Below, piece after piece: positions 24,200 through 32,431 of a stretch of 64,000 bases of DNA; positions within the stretch are counted from its first letter, which is position 1; the number at the start of each line of letters is the position of its first letter. A program made the position numbers and the translations under genes. The stretch is from assembly GCA_965223855.1 (NCBI GenBank), contig CBDCXM010000009.1, forward strand, positions 2,016,001-2,080,000, in the 5' to 3' direction. This stretch comes from Candidatus Multivoradales bacterium (GTDB lineage: Bacteria > Acidobacteriota > Thermoanaerobaculia > Multivoradales > JAHEKO01). The notes below the pieces were generated by a model. That model was not told the DNA's origin. It was given only the letters and a program-made list of their open reading frames with translations, and searched no databases.

Positions 24200-24337
24200 G
24201 AGCTCATCGACAGATACCTTGCCGTTGCGACGGCTCCGGTCGGAGCGAAGGGAGCGCCTCGTCCGCCCAGCAGTGCTGATCTATACTCCGCAGCCTCTCG
24301 CGGCAGCTCGACAGTGCCCTGCAGGAGAGATCGATCG

Positions 24338-25291
24338 ATGAAAGTCAGCGAACATCTCGCACGCGCCGAGCGGCCGCTCCTGAGCTTCGAGATCATCCCG
24401 CCGCTTCGTGGGGGCAACCTCGCCAGCCTGCTCGAGCTGATCGAAGATCTGGCACGCTTCGACCCGCCGTTCATCGACATCACCAGCCACGCCGCTCAGG
24501 TGAGCTACGAGGAGACCGGAGACGGCAACCTCGAGCGACGGGTCAAGCGCAAGCGGCCCGGCACGCTCGGCCTGTGTGCCCTGGTGCAGAACAAGTACCA
24601 GATCGATGCGGTGCCCCACGTCCTGTGCAGCGGGTTCAGCCGCGAGGAGACCGAGGACTTCCTCATCGAGCTCAAGTACCTCGGGATCTCGAACGTCCTC
24701 GCCATCCGCGGCGACGAGGGGGCGTACGAGAAGCCGCTGACGTTCGGTCGCAGCGCCAACAAGTACGCGGTCGATCTGGTGGAGCAGGTCGCGGCGATGA
24801 ACGACGGCCGCTACCTGCAGGAGGACCTGCTCGACGCCGAAGCGTCCGACTTCTGCATCGGCGTGGCCGGCTACCCGGAGAAGCACTTCGAGGCGCCGAA
24901 CCTGGTTTCCGACCTGCGGCACACGAAGGCGAAAGTGGAGGCGGGCGCCGACTACGTGGTGACCCAGATGTTCTTCGACAATCGTCACTACTTCGCCTAC
25001 GTCGACGCCTGCCGGGAGCATGGAATCGACGTGCCGATCGTGCCCGGCATCAAGATCCTGACCAGCCGCAGCCATCTCCAGTCGTTGCCGCGCACCTTCC
25101 ACTGCGAGATTCCGGCCGAGCTCGCCGACGAGGTCGGTGCCTCGCCGGCGTCGCGAGCGCGCGACATCGGAGTCGAGTGGGCGACCCGCCAGGCTCAGGA
25201 GCTCATCGATCGCGGCGCGCCGTCGATCCACTTCTACGTGATGGCGAATTCGCGGGCGGTGGCGCGGGTCGTCGAGCAGCTCAAGTTCTGA
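24338..25291 (+). CDS. metF: 5,10-methylenetetrahydrofolate reductase
   Basis: SFEIIPP, LAIRGD, GVAGYPEKH and VTQMFFDN motifs; AGGAG SD and TATACT -10 at 24282. Confidence 0.93.
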   Translation: MKVSEHLARAERPLLSFEIIPPLRGGNLASLLELIEDLARFDPPFIDITSHAAQVSYEETGDGNLERRVKRKRPGTLGLCALVQNKYQIDAVPHVLCSGFSREETEDFLIELKYLGISNVLAIRGDEGAYEKPLTFGRSANKYAVDLVEQVAAMNDGRYLQEDLLDAEASDFCIGVAGYPEKHFEAPNLVSDLRHTKAKVEAGADYVVTQMFFDNRHYFAYVDACREHGIDVPIVPGIKILTSRSHLQSLPRTFHCEIPAELADEVGASPASRARDIGVEWATRQAQELIDRGAPSIHFYVMANSRAVARVVEQLKF

Positions 25292-26675
25292 CGCCGGACT
25301 CCGTCGGCGGTCCGCCCTGGAATCGCCTCAGGTAGGGCCCCTCGACCATGTCGGGGACGGCGCGACGCCGGCACCGCGTGCAAACCACCTCCACGGGATC
25401 TCCCGCCAGGAGCGGCCCGGTCCGAAGCTTGCTGACTCCGCGCACCTCGCAGTCGGAACAGAAGAATGGCATGAGGAGGGATTCGACGCTGAAGCCGGCG
25501 AAGAAGTCCGAGTCGATGTTGAACAGGAGAACCAGCAGGGGTGGGCACTCGGCGATGACGACCGATCTGCCGTCGTCGCGAAGCTGTTCGAGCCAGTCGC
25601 GCCAGAGGCTGTACCCCCGACTGTTGATGTGCGTGACTCCGGAGAGTCGTAGCTCCAGCGAATCTTCGTCCTGGCTGAACAGGAGGTCCTCGAACCGGCT
25701 CTGTTCATTGATCGTGCCGGCGAGTTCGACCACGACACGCGAAGCCCGGTGACTCACCCAGGTCGCCAGTGCCCGCTGCGCCGCAGGGTAGGGCCGGTCC
25801 TCTCTCCTGCGGACGGGCCGAGCCATCAGCTTGCGCAGCTCGACGAGCCTCAGCCGCATCTCGCCGGCCGAGGCGATCCGATGCGCCAGATTGCGGTCGA
25901 GTGCGTCGGCGGCCAGGCGGTCGGCTTCGGCCGGGATTGCCAGATGAGGAGCCAGCTCCCCCGGAAGTCGTGGCTGAGTGCCTTCTATGGCCGCGAGGAG
26001 CGACGGGAGGTCCTGATCCTCATGGGGAAGCCGCCCGCTGACCATCAGCACGAAGAGCACCCCGAGGGCGTAGACGTCGGATCGCGGTGTCGGCCCCGGT
26101 CCATCCGTTCGGAGGAGTTCGGGGGCTACATAGGCCGGCGTGCCGGCGAGTGAAGCGGCGCCGGCCGTCTTCGGCATCGCGAGCGCCAGCCCGAAGTCGA
26201 GCACCTTGACCATGTTCGTGCGGGCACCGTCACGACAGAGGAAGACGTTCTCCGGTTTGAGGTCGCGGTGGACGATGCCGTGCGCGTGCGCCGCTTCCAG
26301 AGCGAAGGCGACTTCGATCAGGATGGACGCCGCCTCGTCGACCGGAAGCGGCCCCGATCGGGCGAGTCTCTGCGCCAGGGTCTCGCCGTCGAGCAGCTCC
26401 ATGGCGAGGTAGGCGCCGTTCTCGATCCGGCCGAAGTCGAGAACCTGGACGATGTTGCGATGACCGATCAGCGAAACCGTCCTGGCCTCGCGCTCGAGGC
26501 GATCGATCGGCTCGCCCCGGAGGCCGTCCCGGCTCACGAGCTTGATCGCCATCCGGCGACCGACCCTCAAGTGCTCGGCGTCGTACACCGCACTCGACCC
26601 GCTCGCGTCGAGTCGGCGGTCCAACCTGTAGCGCCCCTCCAGGATCGTCCCGACCCAGGCATCAGAATCCGACAG
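25281..26675 (-). CDS. Hanks-type Ser/Thr protein kinase fused to a STAS-like domain and CxxC/CxxC Zn ribbon
   Basis: AIK, HRDLKPEN, DFG and GTPAYVAPE motifs; C-terminal LSGVTHINSRG…CSDC…CTRC; start probably CTG after GGAGG. Confidence 0.85.
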   Translation of the reverse strand: MSDSDAWVGTILEGRYRLDRRLDASGSSAVYDAEHLRVGRRMAIKLVSRDGLRGEPIDRLEREARTVSLIGHRNIVQVLDFGRIENGAYLAMELLDGETLAQRLARSGPLPVDEAASILIEVAFALEAAHAHGIVHRDLKPENVFLCRDGARTNMVKVLDFGLALAMPKTAGAASLAGTPAYVAPELLRTDGPGPTPRSDVYALGVLFVLMVSGRLPHEDQDLPSLLAAIEGTQPRLPGELAPHLAIPAEADRLAADALDRNLAHRIASAGEMRLRLVELRKLMARPVRRREDRPYPAAQRALATWVSHRASRVVVELAGTINEQSRFEDLLFSQDEDSLELRLSGVTHINSRGYSLWRDWLEQLRDDGRSVVIAECPPLLVLLFNIDSDFFAGFSVESLLMPFFCSDCEVRGVSKLRTGPLLAGDPVEVVCTRCRRRAVPDMVEGPYLRRFQGGPPTESGVRT

Positions 26676-26769
26676 AACGACAGACCTCCAGAAAATTGGC
26701 GCCGAGTATAGAGGCTCACCGTCTCGAGAACGACTCGGCCGGGTGCATAGCCGGATCTCTCGAGGATCG

Positions 26770-26798
26770 TTGACCCGGTCTCCGATCCCGGCTAGGCT
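26770..26798 (+). promoter_or_regulatory. Sigma70-type promoter for the riboswitch-metH transcript
   Basis: TTGACC-N17-TAGGCT, with the aptamer starting 7-8 nt downstream. Confidence 0.7.
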
Positions 26799-26804
26799 CG
26801 TCGG

Positions 26805-26916
26805 CGCATCAGGAGTGGTCCGGTAGAGACCGGACTCGGCAACCTGGGACGGACACCCAAGGTGCCTCTCGCTCGACGCGAGGATGTGGCCGCCGCCGGC
26901 GGCAACGAACTGTCCG
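26805..26916 (+). ncRNA. SAM riboswitch (SAM-I/IV-like) upstream of metH
   Basis: P1 GCAUC/GAUGU; P2 GGUCCGGU/ACCGGACU; P3 GGCAACC…AGGUGCC; P4 CUCGC/GCGAG; 3' GC hairpin; L3 CGGACA pairs with the 3' UGUCCG. Confidence 0.85.
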
Positions 26917-27011
26917 GGTGGCTCGGTAGCTGCGGCCCGCTCCCTGATGCGAGAGCGGGCCTTCGTCGTTGGCCCGCGTCTCGGACGAGCGACGACGAAG
27001 GAGAGCAGCAG

Positions 27012-30000
27012 ATGAACGAACCGACATCCACCCCGATCCCGGAGATTCCTCGGCCGCCGGACCTCGACGAGCGGACCGCAGCGCTCGTCGATGCGCTCGC
27101 CGAGCGCATCCTCGTGCTCGACGGGGCGACCGGTACCGCCCTCCAGGCGTTCGACCTCACGGCGGACGACTTCGGCGGCGACGACCTCGAAGGTTGCAAC
27201 GAGAACCTCGTCGCCACCCGCCCCGACGTCGTGGCTGCGGTCCATCGTCGCTACCTCGAGGCGGGGGCCGACATCGTCGAGACCAACACCTTCGGCGGCA
27301 CGCCGCTCGTGCTCGACGAGTACGGGCTCGGCGATCGGGCGATCGAGCTCAACCGCGAGGCGGCCCGCATCGCGCGCGAGAGCTGCGCCCGCTTCGAGGG
27401 GGACGGCCGGCTGCGCTTCGTCTGCGGTTCGATGGGGCCGACTACGAAGGCGATCTCGGTGACCGGCGGGGTGACCTTCGAAGAGCTGATCGATCACTTC
27501 AGGATTCAGGCGCTCGGTTTGATGGCCGGAGGCGTCGACTACCTGCTGCTCGAGACCTGTCAGGACACCCGCAACGTCAAGGCGGGGCTCCTGGGGATCG
27601 AGGCCGCCTTCGAAGGGGTCGGCTGGCGGGTGCCGGTCGCCGTGTCGGTCACCATCGAGCCGACCGGCACGATGCTGGCGGGGCAGGATGCCGAGGCGCT
27701 GGCGATCTCGCTGGCGCACGTCGATCTGCTCTATCTGGGGCTCAACTGCGCGACCGGGCCGGAGCTGATGGCCGAGCACCTGAGGACGCTGTCGACGCTG
27801 GCACGCACCCGGATCGCCTGCGTGCCGAACGCCGGTCTGCCGGACGAAGAGGGCGACTACAACCAGTCGGCGGACGACTTCCGCGAGGTGTTCGGCCGGT
27901 TTCTCGACGAAGGGTGGCTCAACCTCGTCGGCGGCTGTTGCGGCACGACCGAGGAGCATGTCGCGGCGCTGGCCGACCTCGTCGAGGGCCGCCGACCGAG
28001 GGTCGCCCCCCGTCATCAGCGCTCGTTCGTCTCGGGCATCGAAGCGGTGGAGTTGACCGCCGACAACCGGCCGCTGCTGGTCGGGGAGCGCACCAACGTG
28101 CTCGGTAGCCGCAAGTTCAAGAAGCTGATCGCCGGGGGCGACTGGGAGGCCGCCGCGGAGGTCGGGCGAGCCCAGGCGCGGGGCGGCGGGCAGGTGCTCG
28201 ACGTCTGCATGCAGGACCCCGATCGCGACGAGGCGGCGGACGTGAGCCGTTTTCTCGACCGTCTCGTGCGGATGGTGAAGTTGCCGCTGATGGTCGACTC
28301 GACCGATGCGGCGGTGATGGAGGATGCGCTGACCTACTGTCAGGGGAAGTCGGTCCTCAACTCGATCAACCTCGAGGATGGTCTCGCGCGTTTCGATCAG
28401 GTGGCACCGCTGGCGCGGCGCTACGGCGCGGCGGTCGTCGTAGGCCTGATCGACGAGCAGGGGATGGCGGTCGATGCCGCCCGCAAGCTGGAGGTCGCCC
28501 GGCGCAGCTACCAGCTGCTCACAGAGGACTACGGACTGCCGCCCGAGGATCTGTGGTGGGATCCGCTCGTCTTCCCGTGCGGCACCGGCGACGAGAACTA
28601 CATCGGTTCCGCCGCCGCGACGATCGAGGCGGTGCGGCGCATCAAGGAGGAGTTCCCGCTGTCGAAGACCGTGCTCGGGATCTCGAACGTCAGCTTCGGC
28701 CTGCCGGGAGCCGGGCGCGAGATTCTCAACTCGGTCTTCCTCTACCACGCGACGAGGGCGGGCCTGGATGCCGCGATCGTCAACACCGAACGCCTCGCGC
28801 GCTACGCCGAGATCGGCGACGAGGAGCGCCGTCTGTCGGAGGCGCTCCTCTTCCTCTCTCCCGGCGACGTCGAGCAGAGCGAGGCGGCGGTGGCGGCCTT
28901 CACCGAGCACTTCAGGGGGCGCAAGAGCCAGGCGGCAGGGCCGCCGATCGAGACGTTGCCGCTGGAGGACCGGCTGGCGCGCGCCGTGATCGAGGGGACG
29001 AAGGAAGGGCTGACGGACAACCTCGAGGCGGCGCTCGCCGACGACCGATGGCCCGATCCGCTGGCGATCATCAACGGGCCGCTGATGAAGGGCATGAGCG
29101 AGGTCGGCCGGTTGTTCAACGACAACCAGCTGATCGTCGCCGAGGTGCTGCAGAGCGCCGAGGTGATGAAGGCCGCGGTGAACTTCCTCGAGCCGCACAT
29201 GGAGCGCAGCAGCGGCGCCAGCCGCGGCAGGATTCTGCTCGCCACCGTCAAGGGTGACGTCCACGACATCGGCAAGAACCTTGTGGACATCATCCTCAGC
29301 AACAACGGCTTCGAGGTCGTCAACCTCGGGATCAAGGTGCCGAGCGAGCAGCTCGTGCAGGGGGTTCGCGAGCACGGGCCGGACGTGATCGGTCTGTCCG
29401 GCCTGCTGGTCAAGAGCGCCCAGCAGATGGTGTCGACCGCCGGCGACCTGGCGGCGGCCGGGATCGACATGCCGCTGATCGTCGGTGGCGCCGCTCTCAC
29501 GAGGCGCTTCACGCATCGGCGCATCGCTCCCGAGTACGGGGGGCCGTGCACCTACGCGACCGACGCGATGGACGGGCTGCGACTGGTCGAGGGGCTGACC
29601 GACGCCGACCAGCGGCCGGCGCTCGAACGCGAGATCCTGCGCCTGCAGGAGGAGGATCGCGTCGCCGAGGGGGCGAGTCGCAAAGCGGCGCGCCCCCGGA
29701 GACGGGCTGCTCCCGAGATCGACCGCACGCTGCCGGCGCCGTCCCCGCCCGATCTCGAGCGGCACGTCGAGCAGCTCGATCTCGACAGCGTCTGGGAAGA
29801 GCTCAACCCGCAGATGCTCTTCGGCAAGCACCTCGGTCTCAGGGGCTCGGTCGCTGCGCTCGCGGCCGCGGGTGACGAGCGCTACCGCAAGCTCGAAGCG
29901 CTGATCGAGGATCTCAAGGACCGTGCGCGCGGCGGTTCGCTGTCCGCGCAGGCAGTGTGGCAGTTCTTCGCGGCGACACCGGACGGTGATCGTCTCGTGC

Positions 30001-30506
30001 TGACCGACGCCTCCGGCGCGACGGTGGCGGAGTGGGTCTTCCCGCGGCAGGACGACGGCAGCGGCCTATGCCTGACCGATTTCGTTCTTCCCGAAGGCGA
30101 CCACGTCGCGCTCTTCGTGACGACGGCGGGAGAGGGGGTCCGCGAGCAGGCAGAGGCGTGGAAGCAGGAGGGGGAGTACCTGCGCAGCCATGCCTGGGCC
30201 GCCCTGGCACTCGAGACGGCGGAGGCGGCCGCCGAGTCTCTCCATCGGCGTCTGCGCGAGTTGTGGGGCTTCGGCGATGCGCCCTCCATGAGTTTGCGCG
30301 ACCGTCTCTCCGCTCGGTATCGTGGCAAGCGGTATAGCTTCGGCTATCCGGCTTGTCCCGATCTCGAGGGCCAGGTGGCGCTCTTCGAGGCGCTCGAGCC
30401 CGCGGCGATCGGGGCGCGGCTGACCGACGGATTCATGATGGATCCCGAGGCGACCGTCTCCGCCGTCGTGCTGCATCACCCCGGGGCCAGATATTTCGGT
30501 GTGTAG
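27012..30506 (+). CDS. metH: Cobalamin-dependent methionine synthase
   Basis: LDGATGT, GGCCGT, GERTN, GDVHDIGKN (B12-binding His) and RYSFGYPACPDL motifs. Confidence 0.97.
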   Translation: MNEPTSTPIPEIPRPPDLDERTAALVDALAERILVLDGATGTALQAFDLTADDFGGDDLEGCNENLVATRPDVVAAVHRRYLEAGADIVETNTFGGTPLVLDEYGLGDRAIELNREAARIARESCARFEGDGRLRFVCGSMGPTTKAISVTGGVTFEELIDHFRIQALGLMAGGVDYLLLETCQDTRNVKAGLLGIEAAFEGVGWRVPVAVSVTIEPTGTMLAGQDAEALAISLAHVDLLYLGLNCATGPELMAEHLRTLSTLARTRIACVPNAGLPDEEGDYNQSADDFREVFGRFLDEGWLNLVGGCCGTTEEHVAALADLVEGRRPRVAPRHQRSFVSGIEAVELTADNRPLLVGERTNVLGSRKFKKLIAGGDWEAAAEVGRAQARGGGQVLDVCMQDPDRDEAADVSRFLDRLVRMVKLPLMVDSTDAAVMEDALTYCQGKSVLNSINLEDGLARFDQVAPLARRYGAAVVVGLIDEQGMAVDAARKLEVARRSYQLLTEDYGLPPEDLWWDPLVFPCGTGDENYIGSAAATIEAVRRIKEEFPLSKTVLGISNVSFGLPGAGREILNSVFLYHATRAGLDAAIVNTERLARYAEIGDEERRLSEALLFLSPGDVEQSEAAVAAFTEHFRGRKSQAAGPPIETLPLEDRLARAVIEGTKEGLTDNLEAALADDRWPDPLAIINGPLMKGMSEVGRLFNDNQLIVAEVLQSAEVMKAAVNFLEPHMERSSGASRGRILLATVKGDVHDIGKNLVDIILSNNGFEVVNLGIKVPSEQLVQGVREHGPDVIGLSGLLVKSAQQMVSTAGDLAAAGIDMPLIVGGAALTRRFTHRRIAPEYGGPCTYATDAMDGLRLVEGLTDADQRPALEREILRLQEEDRVAEGASRKAARPRRRAAPEIDRTLPAPSPPDLERHVEQLDLDSVWEELNPQMLFGKHLGLRGSVAALAAAGDERYRKLEALIEDLKDRARGGSLSAQAVWQFFAATPDGDRLVLTDASGATVAEWVFPRQDDGSGLCLTDFVLPEGDHVALFVTTAGEGVREQAEAWKQEGEYLRSHAWAALALETAEAAAESLHRRLRELWGFGDAPSMSLRDRLSARYRGKRYSFGYPACPDLEGQVALFEALEPAAIGARLTDGFMMDPEATVSAVVLHHPGARYFGV

Positions 30507-30541: not shown

Positions 30542-30841
30542 TTGAGGGACGGGAAGTTGTGTGTGGTGGCGCGCGTGCGTGCCACCTACGATCAGACGGA
30601 GCGCGTGCGGGAGATCCTGGAGGAGCTGGTGGAGCCGACGCGTGCGGAAGCGGGTTGCCACCGGTATGACCTCTTCGTGAGCGAGGAGGATCCGGGCGAG
30701 TTCGTCTTCATCGAGGAATGGGAGGACGAGACGGCTTTGACGTCCCACTTCGCCACCACCCATTTCGAGGCGTCCGGAGCGGCGCTGACCGGCCTGCTGG
30801 CGGAACCGACGACGATTCTGCGCTACAGCAGGGTGCGCTGA
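30542..30841 (+). CDS. ABM-family protein (putative quinol monooxygenase)
   Basis: TRAEAGCHRYDL…FIEEWED…HFATTHF; TTG start after a purine-rich SD. Confidence 0.8.
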   Translation: MRDGKLCVVARVRATYDQTERVREILEELVEPTRAEAGCHRYDLFVSEEDPGEFVFIEEWEDETALTSHFATTHFEASGAALTGLLAEPTTILRYSRVR

Positions 30842-30866: not shown

Positions 30867-30902
30867 CTCCTCGTCGCAGCTGTCCTCGGATACCCTCGGC
30901 CG

Positions 30903-32012
30903 ATGACTCGAAACCGGTTGGGACTGACCTACGACCTGCTCGCGGAGTCCGAGGTCGCGGCGCGGTCGAAGGCGCGCGACCTGGTGGTCGAGCAGACGGT
31001 GGAGATCCCCGACGGGTGCTACTCGGACGAGATCGCCCGCTCGATCGTCAGCCGGATCGAAGCGCTCGAGGAAGTCGAGGAGGGGTGCTTCCGTCTGGAG
31101 GTGACGGTCTCCCCGGCGCTCGTCGGCCGTGAGATCGGCCAGCTCTTCAACGTCCTCTTCGGCAACATTTCGCTCTTCCGCGGCGTCAGGCTGCGGGCGA
31201 TCGACTGGCCGGCCGGTCTGCTGGAGCTCTTCCCGGGGCCGCGATACGGCATCGCCGGGCTGCGACGCCGGTGCGGTGTCGAGCGCCGACCGCTCCTGTG
31301 TGCCGCCATCAAGCCGGTCGGCAAGACGCCCGGGGAACTGGCCGCCGACTGCGCCGACTTCGCACTCGGCGGTGCCGATCTCATCAAGGACGACCACTCG
31401 CTGGCAAACCAGGCGAGCGCTCCGTTCGCCGAGCGAATCGCCCGCTGCCAGGCGGCGGTGGACGAGGTCAACGCTCGCACCGGAGGCAACACCCTCTATC
31501 TCCCCAATCTGCCGGGAGATCCGCGGTTTCTCGCTGAGCGTCTCGAGCGGCTCGAGGAAGCCGGCTGCGGCGGGGTGATGCTCTCGCCGCTGCTCTTCGG
31601 CATCGAGGCGACGGCCGAGCTGGTGCGCAGCGGCGAGTTCGTCGTCCTCGGGCATCCGACCTTCAGCGGAGCCTTCTTCGGCGACGCTCACGGCATCGCT
31701 CCCGAAGTGCTGTTCGGCGATCTCTACCGCCTTCTGGGGTGCGACGGGGTGATCTATGTCAACGTCGGCGGGCGCTTCGGCTGGACCCTCGAGCAGTGTC
31801 AGGCGGTCAACGAGGCGTTGCGACGGAAGCTGCCGGGGATCGAGCCCGCCTTCCCGGTGCCCGCCGGTGGTGTGCAGACCGGTGAGGTCGGCATGCACCT
31901 CGAACGCTACGGAGCCGACACCATGGTGCTGATCGGCGGCAGCCTCTACCAGCAGGGGGATCTGGCGGCGGCGACCGCTCGACTGCGCGAGGATCTCGAG
32001 GACGTCGCATGA
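30903..32012 (+). CDS. RuBisCO-like protein (form IV), probable 5-methylthioribulose-1-P isomerase type
   Basis: EQTVE, AIKPVG, GGADLIKDDH, GHPTFSG, PAGG and IGGSL motifs; about 370 aa and lacks the KDDE of true RuBisCO. Confidence 0.88.
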   Translation: MTRNRLGLTYDLLAESEVAARSKARDLVVEQTVEIPDGCYSDEIARSIVSRIEALEEVEEGCFRLEVTVSPALVGREIGQLFNVLFGNISLFRGVRLRAIDWPAGLLELFPGPRYGIAGLRRRCGVERRPLLCAAIKPVGKTPGELAADCADFALGGADLIKDDHSLANQASAPFAERIARCQAAVDEVNARTGGNTLYLPNLPGDPRFLAERLERLEEAGCGGVMLSPLLFGIEATAELVRSGEFVVLGHPTFSGAFFGDAHGIAPEVLFGDLYRLLGCDGVIYVNVGGRFGWTLEQCQAVNEALRRKLPGIEPAFPVPAGGVQTGEVGMHLERYGADTMVLIGGSLYQQGDLAAATARLREDLEDVA

Positions 32013-32431
32013 GCTCGGCGGTGCTGCGGCACGCCGGAGCCGGCTGGGAGGGGATCGAGCGGCGGCTCTACAAGACCGACGACGAGGGCCGCCATCGGGG
32101 AGTCACTCGGCAGACGCTGTGCGCTGCCGGAACCCCCGGCCTGGCGAGTGAGACGCGCTACTTCGAGATCGAGCCGGGCGGCTTCTCGAGCCGCGAGCGC
32201 CATCGACACGCTCACTTCGTGGTCGTCGTTCGCGGCAGCGGTCGAGTCGAGCTCGACGGCGAGGAGCATGCGCTGCGGCAGTTCGACGCCGTCTACGTGG
32301 CGCCGGGGAGTGTGCACCGGTTCCACGCCGATGCCGAGGCGCTGGGGTTCCTCTGCGTCGTCGACGGCGAGCGCGATCGCCCCGAGCCGGTCCCGGCCGC
32401 GAACGAGACGTCTCAGCCGTCCGACAGCTGA
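32009..32431 (+). CDS. Cupin, probable methylthio-xylulose-5-P methylsulfurylase type
   Basis: RYFEIEPGG, ERHRHAH, HRF and GFLCVVD…RDRP motifs; ATGA-coupled to the RLP. Confidence 0.8.
   Translation: MSSAVLRHAGAGWEGIERRLYKTDDEGRHRGVTRQTLCAAGTPGLASETRYFEIEPGGFSSRERHRHAHFVVVVRGSGRVELDGEEHALRQFDAVYVAPGSVHRFHADAEALGFLCVVDGERDRPEPVPAANETSQPSDS

Follow-up and report, generated by a model that had tools for sequence, protein, structure and literature searches.

A probable methylthioadenosine-isoprenoid shunt in Thermoanaerobaculia, encoded by a RuBisCO-like protein and cupin gene pair downstream of a SAM riboswitch and metH

Rhodospirillum rubrum carries a shunt that ties the salvage of 5'-methylthioadenosine (MTA), a by-product of S-adenosylmethionine (SAM), to isoprenoid synthesis through a RuBisCO-like protein (RLP; Rru_A1998) and a cupin (Rru_A2000), as reported in 2012 by Erb et al. 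and by Warlick et al. and relayed in PMC5893883 and PMC4958253. Together with PMC6302742 and PMC10663253, these two papers supply our background on the shunt and on the 2-C-methyl-D-erythritol 4-phosphate (MEP) pathway. The R. rubrum cupin is a 1-methylthio-xylulose-5-phosphate (MTXu-5-P) methylsulfurylase (PMC4958253). Rhodopseudomonas palustris has two RLPs: RLP1 (RPA2169), of the DeepYkr type, for which 1,3-isomerization of 5-methylthioribulose-1-phosphate (MTRu-1P) was shown in vivo and in vitro, and RLP2, which does not catalyze this isomerization (PMC5893883). According to the same source, the pair is found alongside mtnP and mtnA in 25 or more species, including 13 Proteobacteria, 9 Firmicutes and 2 Deinococcus-Thermus. 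Here we analyze a high-GC (~0.68) stretch of 64,000 nucleotides (the window) on contig C9 (CBDCXM010000009.1) of the acidobacterial assembly G000 (4.52 Mb, 9 contigs, 92.47% complete), a Candidatus Multivoradales bacterium of the class Thermoanaerobaculia, which encodes an RLP and an adjoining cupin. A preliminary description, made from the letters of the window, had proposed that this pair forms an MTA-isoprenoid shunt. The family assignment of both proteins, the RLP near the R. palustris structure 3qfw and the cupin near Rru_A2000, and the recurrence of their pairing across genomes support that reading, and from such sequence evidence we consider the shunt a probable function of the pair in this acidobacterium.

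The RLP (369 amino acids; positions 30903–32012, plus strand; PF00016, 61.8 bits, cut-off 30.1) is read from an open reading frame (ORF) that begins at 30903, not at 30891 as first described. It contains GGADLIKDDHSL, that is KDDH, and keeps the carbamylatable lysine K162 along with D164 and H165. Both its translation and an alignment to form I RuBisCO bear out the earlier assignment to form IV with KDDH replacing KDDE. When aligned to the form I enzyme of Meiothermus hypogaeus (positions in spinach numbering), the protein keeps the counterparts of K175 (K137), K201 (K162), D203 (D164) and H294 (H251) and is without those of K177, E204 (H165 instead), R295, H327, K334 and S379. Across a family alignment of 43 sequences H165 is kept in at least 90%, and all 16 invariant columns are retained in the window's RLP. 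Its closest matches, at 67–71% identity, come from metagenomes, with one named Acidobacteriota metagenome-assembled genome (MAG) among the matches listed.

Comparison with solved structures by sequence placed the protein nearest to 3qfw (236.3 bits), followed by Geobacillus MtnW 2oek (156.5), the Alicyclobacillus RLP 4nas (151.8) and type III RuBisCO (~104); lower scores were obtained with the solved RLPs of Chlorobium (C. tepidum, 86.7), R. palustris rlp2 (79.7) and 3nwr (75.8). Pairwise alignments show KDDH in 3qfw and KDDE in MtnW. An AlphaFold model built on the 43-sequence alignment (mean pLDDT 96.0) again returned 3qfw at rank 1 of a fold search (E 3.5e-41, TMt 0.93), with TM values of 0.87–0.93 to solved RLPs. 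Since 3qfw bears the title 'Rubisco-like protein from Rhodopseudomonas palustris' and 2qyg, of the same species, that of rlp2, we infer by exclusion that 3qfw is RLP1. None of the NCBIfam equivalog cut-offs was reached by the RLP; the best models were those for MtnW (NF007095, 173.8 bits against a cut-off of 409; TIGR03332, 140.1 against 513.6), and a control MtnW from Alicyclobacillus scored 549 bits with NF007095. These comparisons support assigning the window's protein to the R. palustris RLP1 / R. rubrum type, as a predicted MTRu-1P 1,3-isomerase.

[quoted passage not shown] This group lies inside a 41-row clade (SH-aLRT 99) shared with Ectothiorhodospiraceae, Nitrococcus among them, and with Gemmatimonadota and Acidobacteriota. 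MtnW fell outside the 90-row ingroup (SH-aLRT 98), the two outgroup rows being long branches that join each other. By scores and tree alike, the RLP clusters neither with MtnW nor with sugar-acid RLPs, the two placements that the preliminary description had named as refuting its reading. G020, a genome of the same family, encodes an RLP identical to the one in a Candidatus Multivoradales MAG of the class Thermoanaerobaculia.

The cupin (140 amino acids; 32009–32431, plus strand; Cupin_2, 53.8 bits, cut-off 27.2) is translationally coupled to the RLP as had been described, its ATG overlapping the RLP stop codon TGA as ATGA. The motifs attributed to it, HxHxH and GFLCVVD...RDRP, are all present, as RHRHAHF (H65, H67, H69) and GFLCVVDGERDRP. 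Three solved structures stand out as its best relatives: 3ibm at 113.8 bits, 3jzv at 91.9 (E 3.6e-25) and 3kgz at 87.2, with 34.4 for the family that follows. The entry 3jzv was deposited as 'uncharacterized protein Rru_A2000', and the alignment of the cupin cysteine that the preliminary description had called for shows GFLC...ERD.P and ERH.HAH matching this R. rubrum enzyme. In an alignment of 61 cupins, the window's and 60 from the 91 loci examined, E63, H65, H67 and H69 are kept in all 61, H103 and C116 in 60, and R122, D123 and P125 in 58–59. The cysteine is said, in the work of Warlick and colleagues, to be the nucleophile. We rejected an identity as a dimethylsulfoniopropionate-lyase-like enzyme, DddK scoring 25.5 bits against 91.9–113.8 for the Rru_A2000 group. 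Membership in the Rru_A2000 family is supported, and with it a predicted thiol-dependent release of DXP (1-deoxy-D-xylulose 5-phosphate) and a methylthio adduct.

How regularly the two genes travel together was assessed in KDDH-type relatives from a pattern scan in which each species was represented by one genome; it returned at least 588 stretches, of which the best 80 loci were analyzed. In 53 of the 80 a cupin homologue follows downstream on the same strand at a distance of at most 300 nt, and in 3 it lies elsewhere in the locus; no cupin was seen in 24, and for 21 of these the downstream flank spans 600 nt or more. Single-ORF RLP-cupin fusions account for 5 of the 80, and mtnA falls inside the fetched flanks of 8. 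Among the best 150 of 1702 cluster representatives (E up to 0.001), we scanned all 35 proteins of at least 497 amino acids and found RuBisCO_large together with Cupin_2 in 27. The loci of the pattern scan extend the pair to many phyla beyond Proteobacteria, Firmicutes and Deinococcus-Thermus. That the lineage is an apparently unrelated one, as the preliminary description put it, is true but unsurprising, the pair having already been published from several phyla.

Closer to the window the module is patchy. We sampled 41 kin genomes, which include the unpublished G005 and are not independent of one another; 14 have the RLP, the cupin is matched strongly (E up to 1e-20) in 12, and RLP and cupin are adjacent in 7 (G000, G001, G002, G009, G012, G016 and G030). 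In a class-wide sample of 201 genomes at least 90% complete, among them G049, G139, G168, G207 and G211, an RLP was detected at E up to 1e-40 in only 8; no conclusion rests on these five genomes or on G005. Five kin (G003, G004, G020, G013 and G006; loci L133–L137) have stand-alone cupins, 38–43% identical to the window's, that keep HEHEH and GFLC...ERD.P and do not lie beside an RLP; no RLP was found in G004 and G013 (77% and 86% complete).

The wider survey also turned up other arrangements of the RLP family. A separate, cupin-less sister clade of KDDH RLPs comprises 11 rows, and at seven of its loci (L075, L080, L082, L083, L084, L090 and L096) the upstream gene encodes a Transket_pyr/Transketolase_C protein of 313–335 amino acids. 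The operons of Alicyclobacillus sp. ALC3 and Chloroflexus sp. MS-G consist of an APH-family kinase gene, mtnA, genes for a Transketolase_N and a Transketolase_C subunit, and the RLP gene, and in P0259 the RLP is fused to Transketolase_N/DXP_synthase_N. One combined literature search returned no paper joining an RLP with mtnA and a split transketolase among the matches listed. In 15 Balneolota and Bacteroidota loci (L049, L057–L059, L062, L063, L068, L070, L072, L073, L076, L085, L086, L092 and L095), purA, encoding adenylosuccinate synthetase, lies directly upstream of the RLP-cupin pair. Further fusions join an inositol-monophosphatase domain or GNAT acetyltransferase domains to the RLP (P0176, P0080).

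From these assignments a route can be proposed in which MTA phosphorylase, encoded elsewhere in the genome, would yield 5-methylthioribose-1-phosphate, and an isomerase would convert this to MTRu-1P; that step normally falls to MtnA, whose gene the search of the assembly did not find. The RLP would then carry out the 1,3-isomerization to MTXu-5-P at a metal site formed by carbamylatable Lys162 and Asp164/His165, and the cupin, using Cys116, a His-bound metal and a cellular thiol, would remove the methylthio group to give DXP and a methyl disulfide that would end as methanethiol. DXP would enter the MEP pathway through Dxr, and methanethiol could be made into methionine again. The enzyme that releases methanethiol from the methylthio-thiol adduct is described as unassigned (PMC5893883). 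A search for class-II aldolases (MtnB or Ald2) found none in the genome, which leaves MTRu-1P without a visible competing sink.

The pair sits at the end of a plus-strand gene run that starts at a SAM-I/IV riboswitch aptamer in the metH leader (26801–26919; Rfam RF01725, full model 1–99, 48.3 bits against a gathering score of 41.1), 3' of which we read a GC-rich hairpin, GGCCCGCTC...GAGCGGGCC, at ~26935–26965. The gene that follows, metH, encodes a cobalamin-dependent methionine synthase (27013–30506; TIGR02082 at 1123.5 bits against 1010.85; five Pfam domains); its frame is open from 26862, and the ATG at 27013, behind GAAGGAG, is the likely start. Riboswitch and metH are thus as the preliminary description had them, but the RLP gene does not follow metH directly, a 92-amino-acid ORF with an ABM (dimeric alpha-beta barrel) domain intervening (~30563–30841, plus strand; PF03992 at 72.7 bits; start candidates TTG 30557, GTG 30563 and GTG 30566). 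Intergenic gaps measure 50–60 nt along the metH-ABM-RLP run, and a DUF4388 gene on the minus strand converges on the run as a whole. A sequence scan, weak evidence only, found no plus-strand terminator-like site between 26000 and 33000 and no promoter-like site. Judged from this layout, the RLP-cupin pair is most likely co-transcribed with metH and the ABM-domain gene behind the riboswitch, an arrangement under which low SAM would switch on methionine resynthesis from homocysteine and salvage of MTA sulfur together. SAM riboswitches control methionine-salvage genes in Bacillus.

Physical clustering with methionine regeneration, another point of the preliminary description, holds for metH, which belongs to the same run. 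The metF-type methylenetetrahydrofolate reductase gene (24314–25291, plus strand; PF02219 at 206.8 bits) is context from another transcription unit, a Ser/Thr kinase gene on the minus strand lying between it and the riboswitch. A 1516-amino-acid minus-strand ORF (25281–29831) running antisense through metH is a high-GC artefact, of which only the C-terminal part, with a Pkinase domain at residues 1078–1275, is likely to be the real Ser/Thr kinase gene. In the congener G002 metF lies directly before riboswitch and metH, the riboswitch there scoring 47.7 bits. The metH-RLP arrangement recurs in G002, G003, G012 and G020 (L010; L025 is of the same organism), and in L024.

The ABM gene was considered as a conserved partner of the RLP and rejected: it occurs in none of the 80 related loci and takes this position only in G000 and its congener G001, where the protein is 64% identical and its gene lies directly upstream of the RLP gene. 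G002, which has mtnA, has no ABM gene before its RLP. The match of the ABM ORF to the LsrG model is weak (26.3 bits against a cut-off of 135). At the ABM position, between metH and the RLP gene, G012 (L008 2595–3083) and G016 (L007) have a DinB-family gene, beside which G016 has an AhpC/redoxin-like ORF before the RLP (L007 1414–1968 and 1895–2482). DinB-fold proteins include thiol transferases.

As the preliminary description had said, the remaining salvage genes lie outside the window. The genome search that it proposed gave a divided answer: mtnP is present, ~900 kb away on the same contig (324.8 bits against 274.85), but mtnA was not found in the 92.47%-complete assembly, neither TIGR00512 nor PF01008 giving a match and tblastn with MtnA of the congeners G002 and G004 reaching at best E 0.9. 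The search for a sulfhydrylase (metY) failed as well, no protein of the genome reaching the O-acetylhomoserine sulfhydrylase cut-off; at least four Cys/Met pyridoxal-phosphate (PLP) enzymes of unclear specificity are encoded. Both absences weigh against a working shunt, as does the distribution of mtnA among the non-independent kin, where it was found in 37 of 41 genomes: the four without any match (G000, G001, G006 and G009, three of them less than 94% complete) are all RLP-positive, and all 27 RLP-negative genomes have the gene, split in two in G034. The synteny points the same way. In G002, G003 and G004 the order is cutA-PLP enzyme-mtnA, and in G000 homology stops right after cutA (C9 ~806,170), at a 578-amino-acid gene without a Pfam match. 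This junction, as assembled, is spanned by short-read contigs from run X1 (2860 nt) and run X2 (937 nt); the runs may be the assembly's own source, and the comparison was with contigs only, so that uncovered parts are uninformative. G003, finally, has at the syntenic site an mtnA remnant (residues 153–215 and 333–366, in different frames) and has lost the cupin adjoining its RLP.

Three other readings of the pair have to be set against the shunt. The observations just given would be expected if mtnA has really been lost and the RLP and cupin are stranded or re-purposed, either decaying or fed by a non-homologous isomerase or another substrate; we rate this unlikely. It draws further on the ABM gene, a candidate for such an isomerase, which precedes the RLP only in the two congeners without an mtnA match (G000 and G001) and whose fold includes the sugar-phosphate isomerase LsrG, weak as that match is, as well as on the support that independent contigs lend to the post-cutA junction. 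On the other side, RLP and cupin keep every family-invariant residue, G001 is only 80% complete, the ABM gene is missing from all 80 related loci, and we know of no ABM protein that isomerizes a ribose-1-phosphate. The universal genes tsaD and lepA, together with dus, were likewise not found in the assembly (the tsaD control was positive in 14 of 14 reference genomes, and the gene is present in G002, G003, G004 and G006), and in G002 all three lie within 6 kb of mtnA. Some DNA is therefore certainly missing from the assembly, and we regard an assembly gap and a real loss of mtnA as about evenly balanced.

The other two readings concern the substrate. Were the RLP an MtnW-type 2,3-diketo-5-methylthiopentyl-1-phosphate enolase, with the cupin an unrelated neighbor or acireductone-dioxygenase-like, one would understand why the top NCBIfam names are MtnW models and why MtnW is the second-best solved family; but the scores lie far under both cut-offs, the motif is KDDH and not KDDE, true MtnW stands outside the ingroup, an MtnB-type class-II aldolase/dehydratase was not found in the genome, and the cupin belongs specifically to the Rru_A2000 family, all of which makes this reading extremely improbable. 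By chemical analogy, the RLP might instead act mainly on 5-deoxyribulose-1-phosphate, derived from the radical-SAM by-product 5'-deoxyadenosine, and yield DXP directly, the cupin serving only the methylthio analogue. This would suit a genome that has Dxr and no DXP synthase (DXS), and related salvage enzymes are reported to take sugars derived both from MTA and from 5'-deoxyadenosine (PMC10986504, PMC6079011). It would need MtnA too, however, and the tight coupling and frequent fusion of the RLP with a Cys-cupin argue that a methylthio compound is the selected substrate; we think it very unlikely. The MTA-isoprenoid shunt thus stands as our preferred account of the pair.

What the shunt would feed is a MEP pathway of unusual composition. 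As the preliminary description had suggested checking, the genome encodes Dxr (411.8 bits), together with IspG (361.4 bits); no DXS was found, the best TIGR00204 score being 67.9 bits against a cut-off of 466, and no HMG-CoA reductase was found either. A hidden DXS was rejected, the four best TIGR00204 hits being three fused E1 alpha-beta 2-oxoacid-dehydrogenase-like proteins and a true transketolase, recognized as such at 855.8 bits. With Dxr and IspG present and DXS and HMG-CoA reductase not found, the RLP-cupin pair is the only recognizable DXP route in the genome; the dxr neighborhood, an ordinary cdsA-dxr-rseP, gives no clue to the source of DXP. Among the 41 kin, DXS is found in 3 and Dxr in 23, the latter in 13 of the 14 RLP-positive and 10 of the 27 RLP-negative genomes, counts to be read with the relatedness of these genomes in mind. 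Class-wide, 171 of the 201 genomes have Dxr and 115 have DXS, so that at least 56 have Dxr without DXS, and in family f8 (29 genomes) Dxr occurs in 26, DXS in 1 and the RLP in none. Since such families have Dxr and neither DXS nor an RLP, another source of DXP must exist in the class, and for the class at large the pair cannot account for Dxr without DXS. These families weaken the idea that the SAM-riboswitch-controlled cassette might be a principal DXP source, tying isoprenoid precursor supply to SAM turnover, and we hold it unlikely; that the ABM protein might also replace MtnA in the two congeners without mtnA is a further and more speculative step. In one supplementary file of the only survey of DXS-less MEP pathways that our search found (PMC10663253), a single Acidobacteri* entry appears.

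The shunt itself is already known, and what is added here is a further lineage, Thermoanaerobaculia, and an operon context with a SAM riboswitch and metH. Among the matches listed in the literature search no paper links the shunt to Acidobacteria or Thermoanaerobaculia, from which we claim no unpublished status. For annotation the value is modest: most of the relatives listed are named 'ribulose-bisphosphate carboxylase large chain', and among the matches listed only 4 of 120 bear the name S-methyl-5-thioribulose 1-phosphate isomerase. The carboxylase names could lead one to credit Acidobacteriota MAGs with carbon fixation, where the right reading would be salvage of a SAM by-product with release of methanethiol, a volatile compound in the sulfur cycle. 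Of greater interest is the context, in that DXS is lacking from the organism and from most of those class-level relatives that keep Dxr; a real flux of DXP through the shunt, if there is one here, would make this a natural example of isoprenoid synthesis independent of DXS.

Set beside the described systems, the locus resembles the R. rubrum shunt: both protein families are shared, their order is the same, and mtnP and dxr are in the genome. It differs in its phylum, Acidobacteriota (class Thermoanaerobaculia), in the SAM-riboswitch metH operon and ABM gene, and in that mtnA and DXS were not found in this genome. With R. palustris RLP1 (RPA2169; cupin RPA2170) the window's protein shares KDDH, a length of ~370 amino acids and an adjacent cupin (PMC5893883), at ~36% identity to 3qfw in the structural alignment; R. 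palustris, however, has an mtnP-mtnA pair, Ald2 and DXS-independent alternatives (PMC5893883), and here neither Ald2 nor MtnB was found. MtnW (YkrW) of Bacillus and Geobacillus has the same RuBisCO large-subunit fold and likewise serves methionine salvage after MtnA, but keeps KDDE, is ~40 residues longer and acts after MtnB. The cupin-less clade with mtnK, mtnA and a split transketolase belongs to the same KDDH superclade (38–39% identity) and is mtnA-linked, with a two-subunit transketolase-like enzyme, absent from this locus, in the cupin's place. The RLP-cupin fusions of uncultured bacteria, Planctomycetota and Nitrospirota, which group in a single clade of this RLP family (SH-aLRT 97, 5 rows), present the same two domains in the same order as one protein, where the window has two separate, translationally coupled genes.

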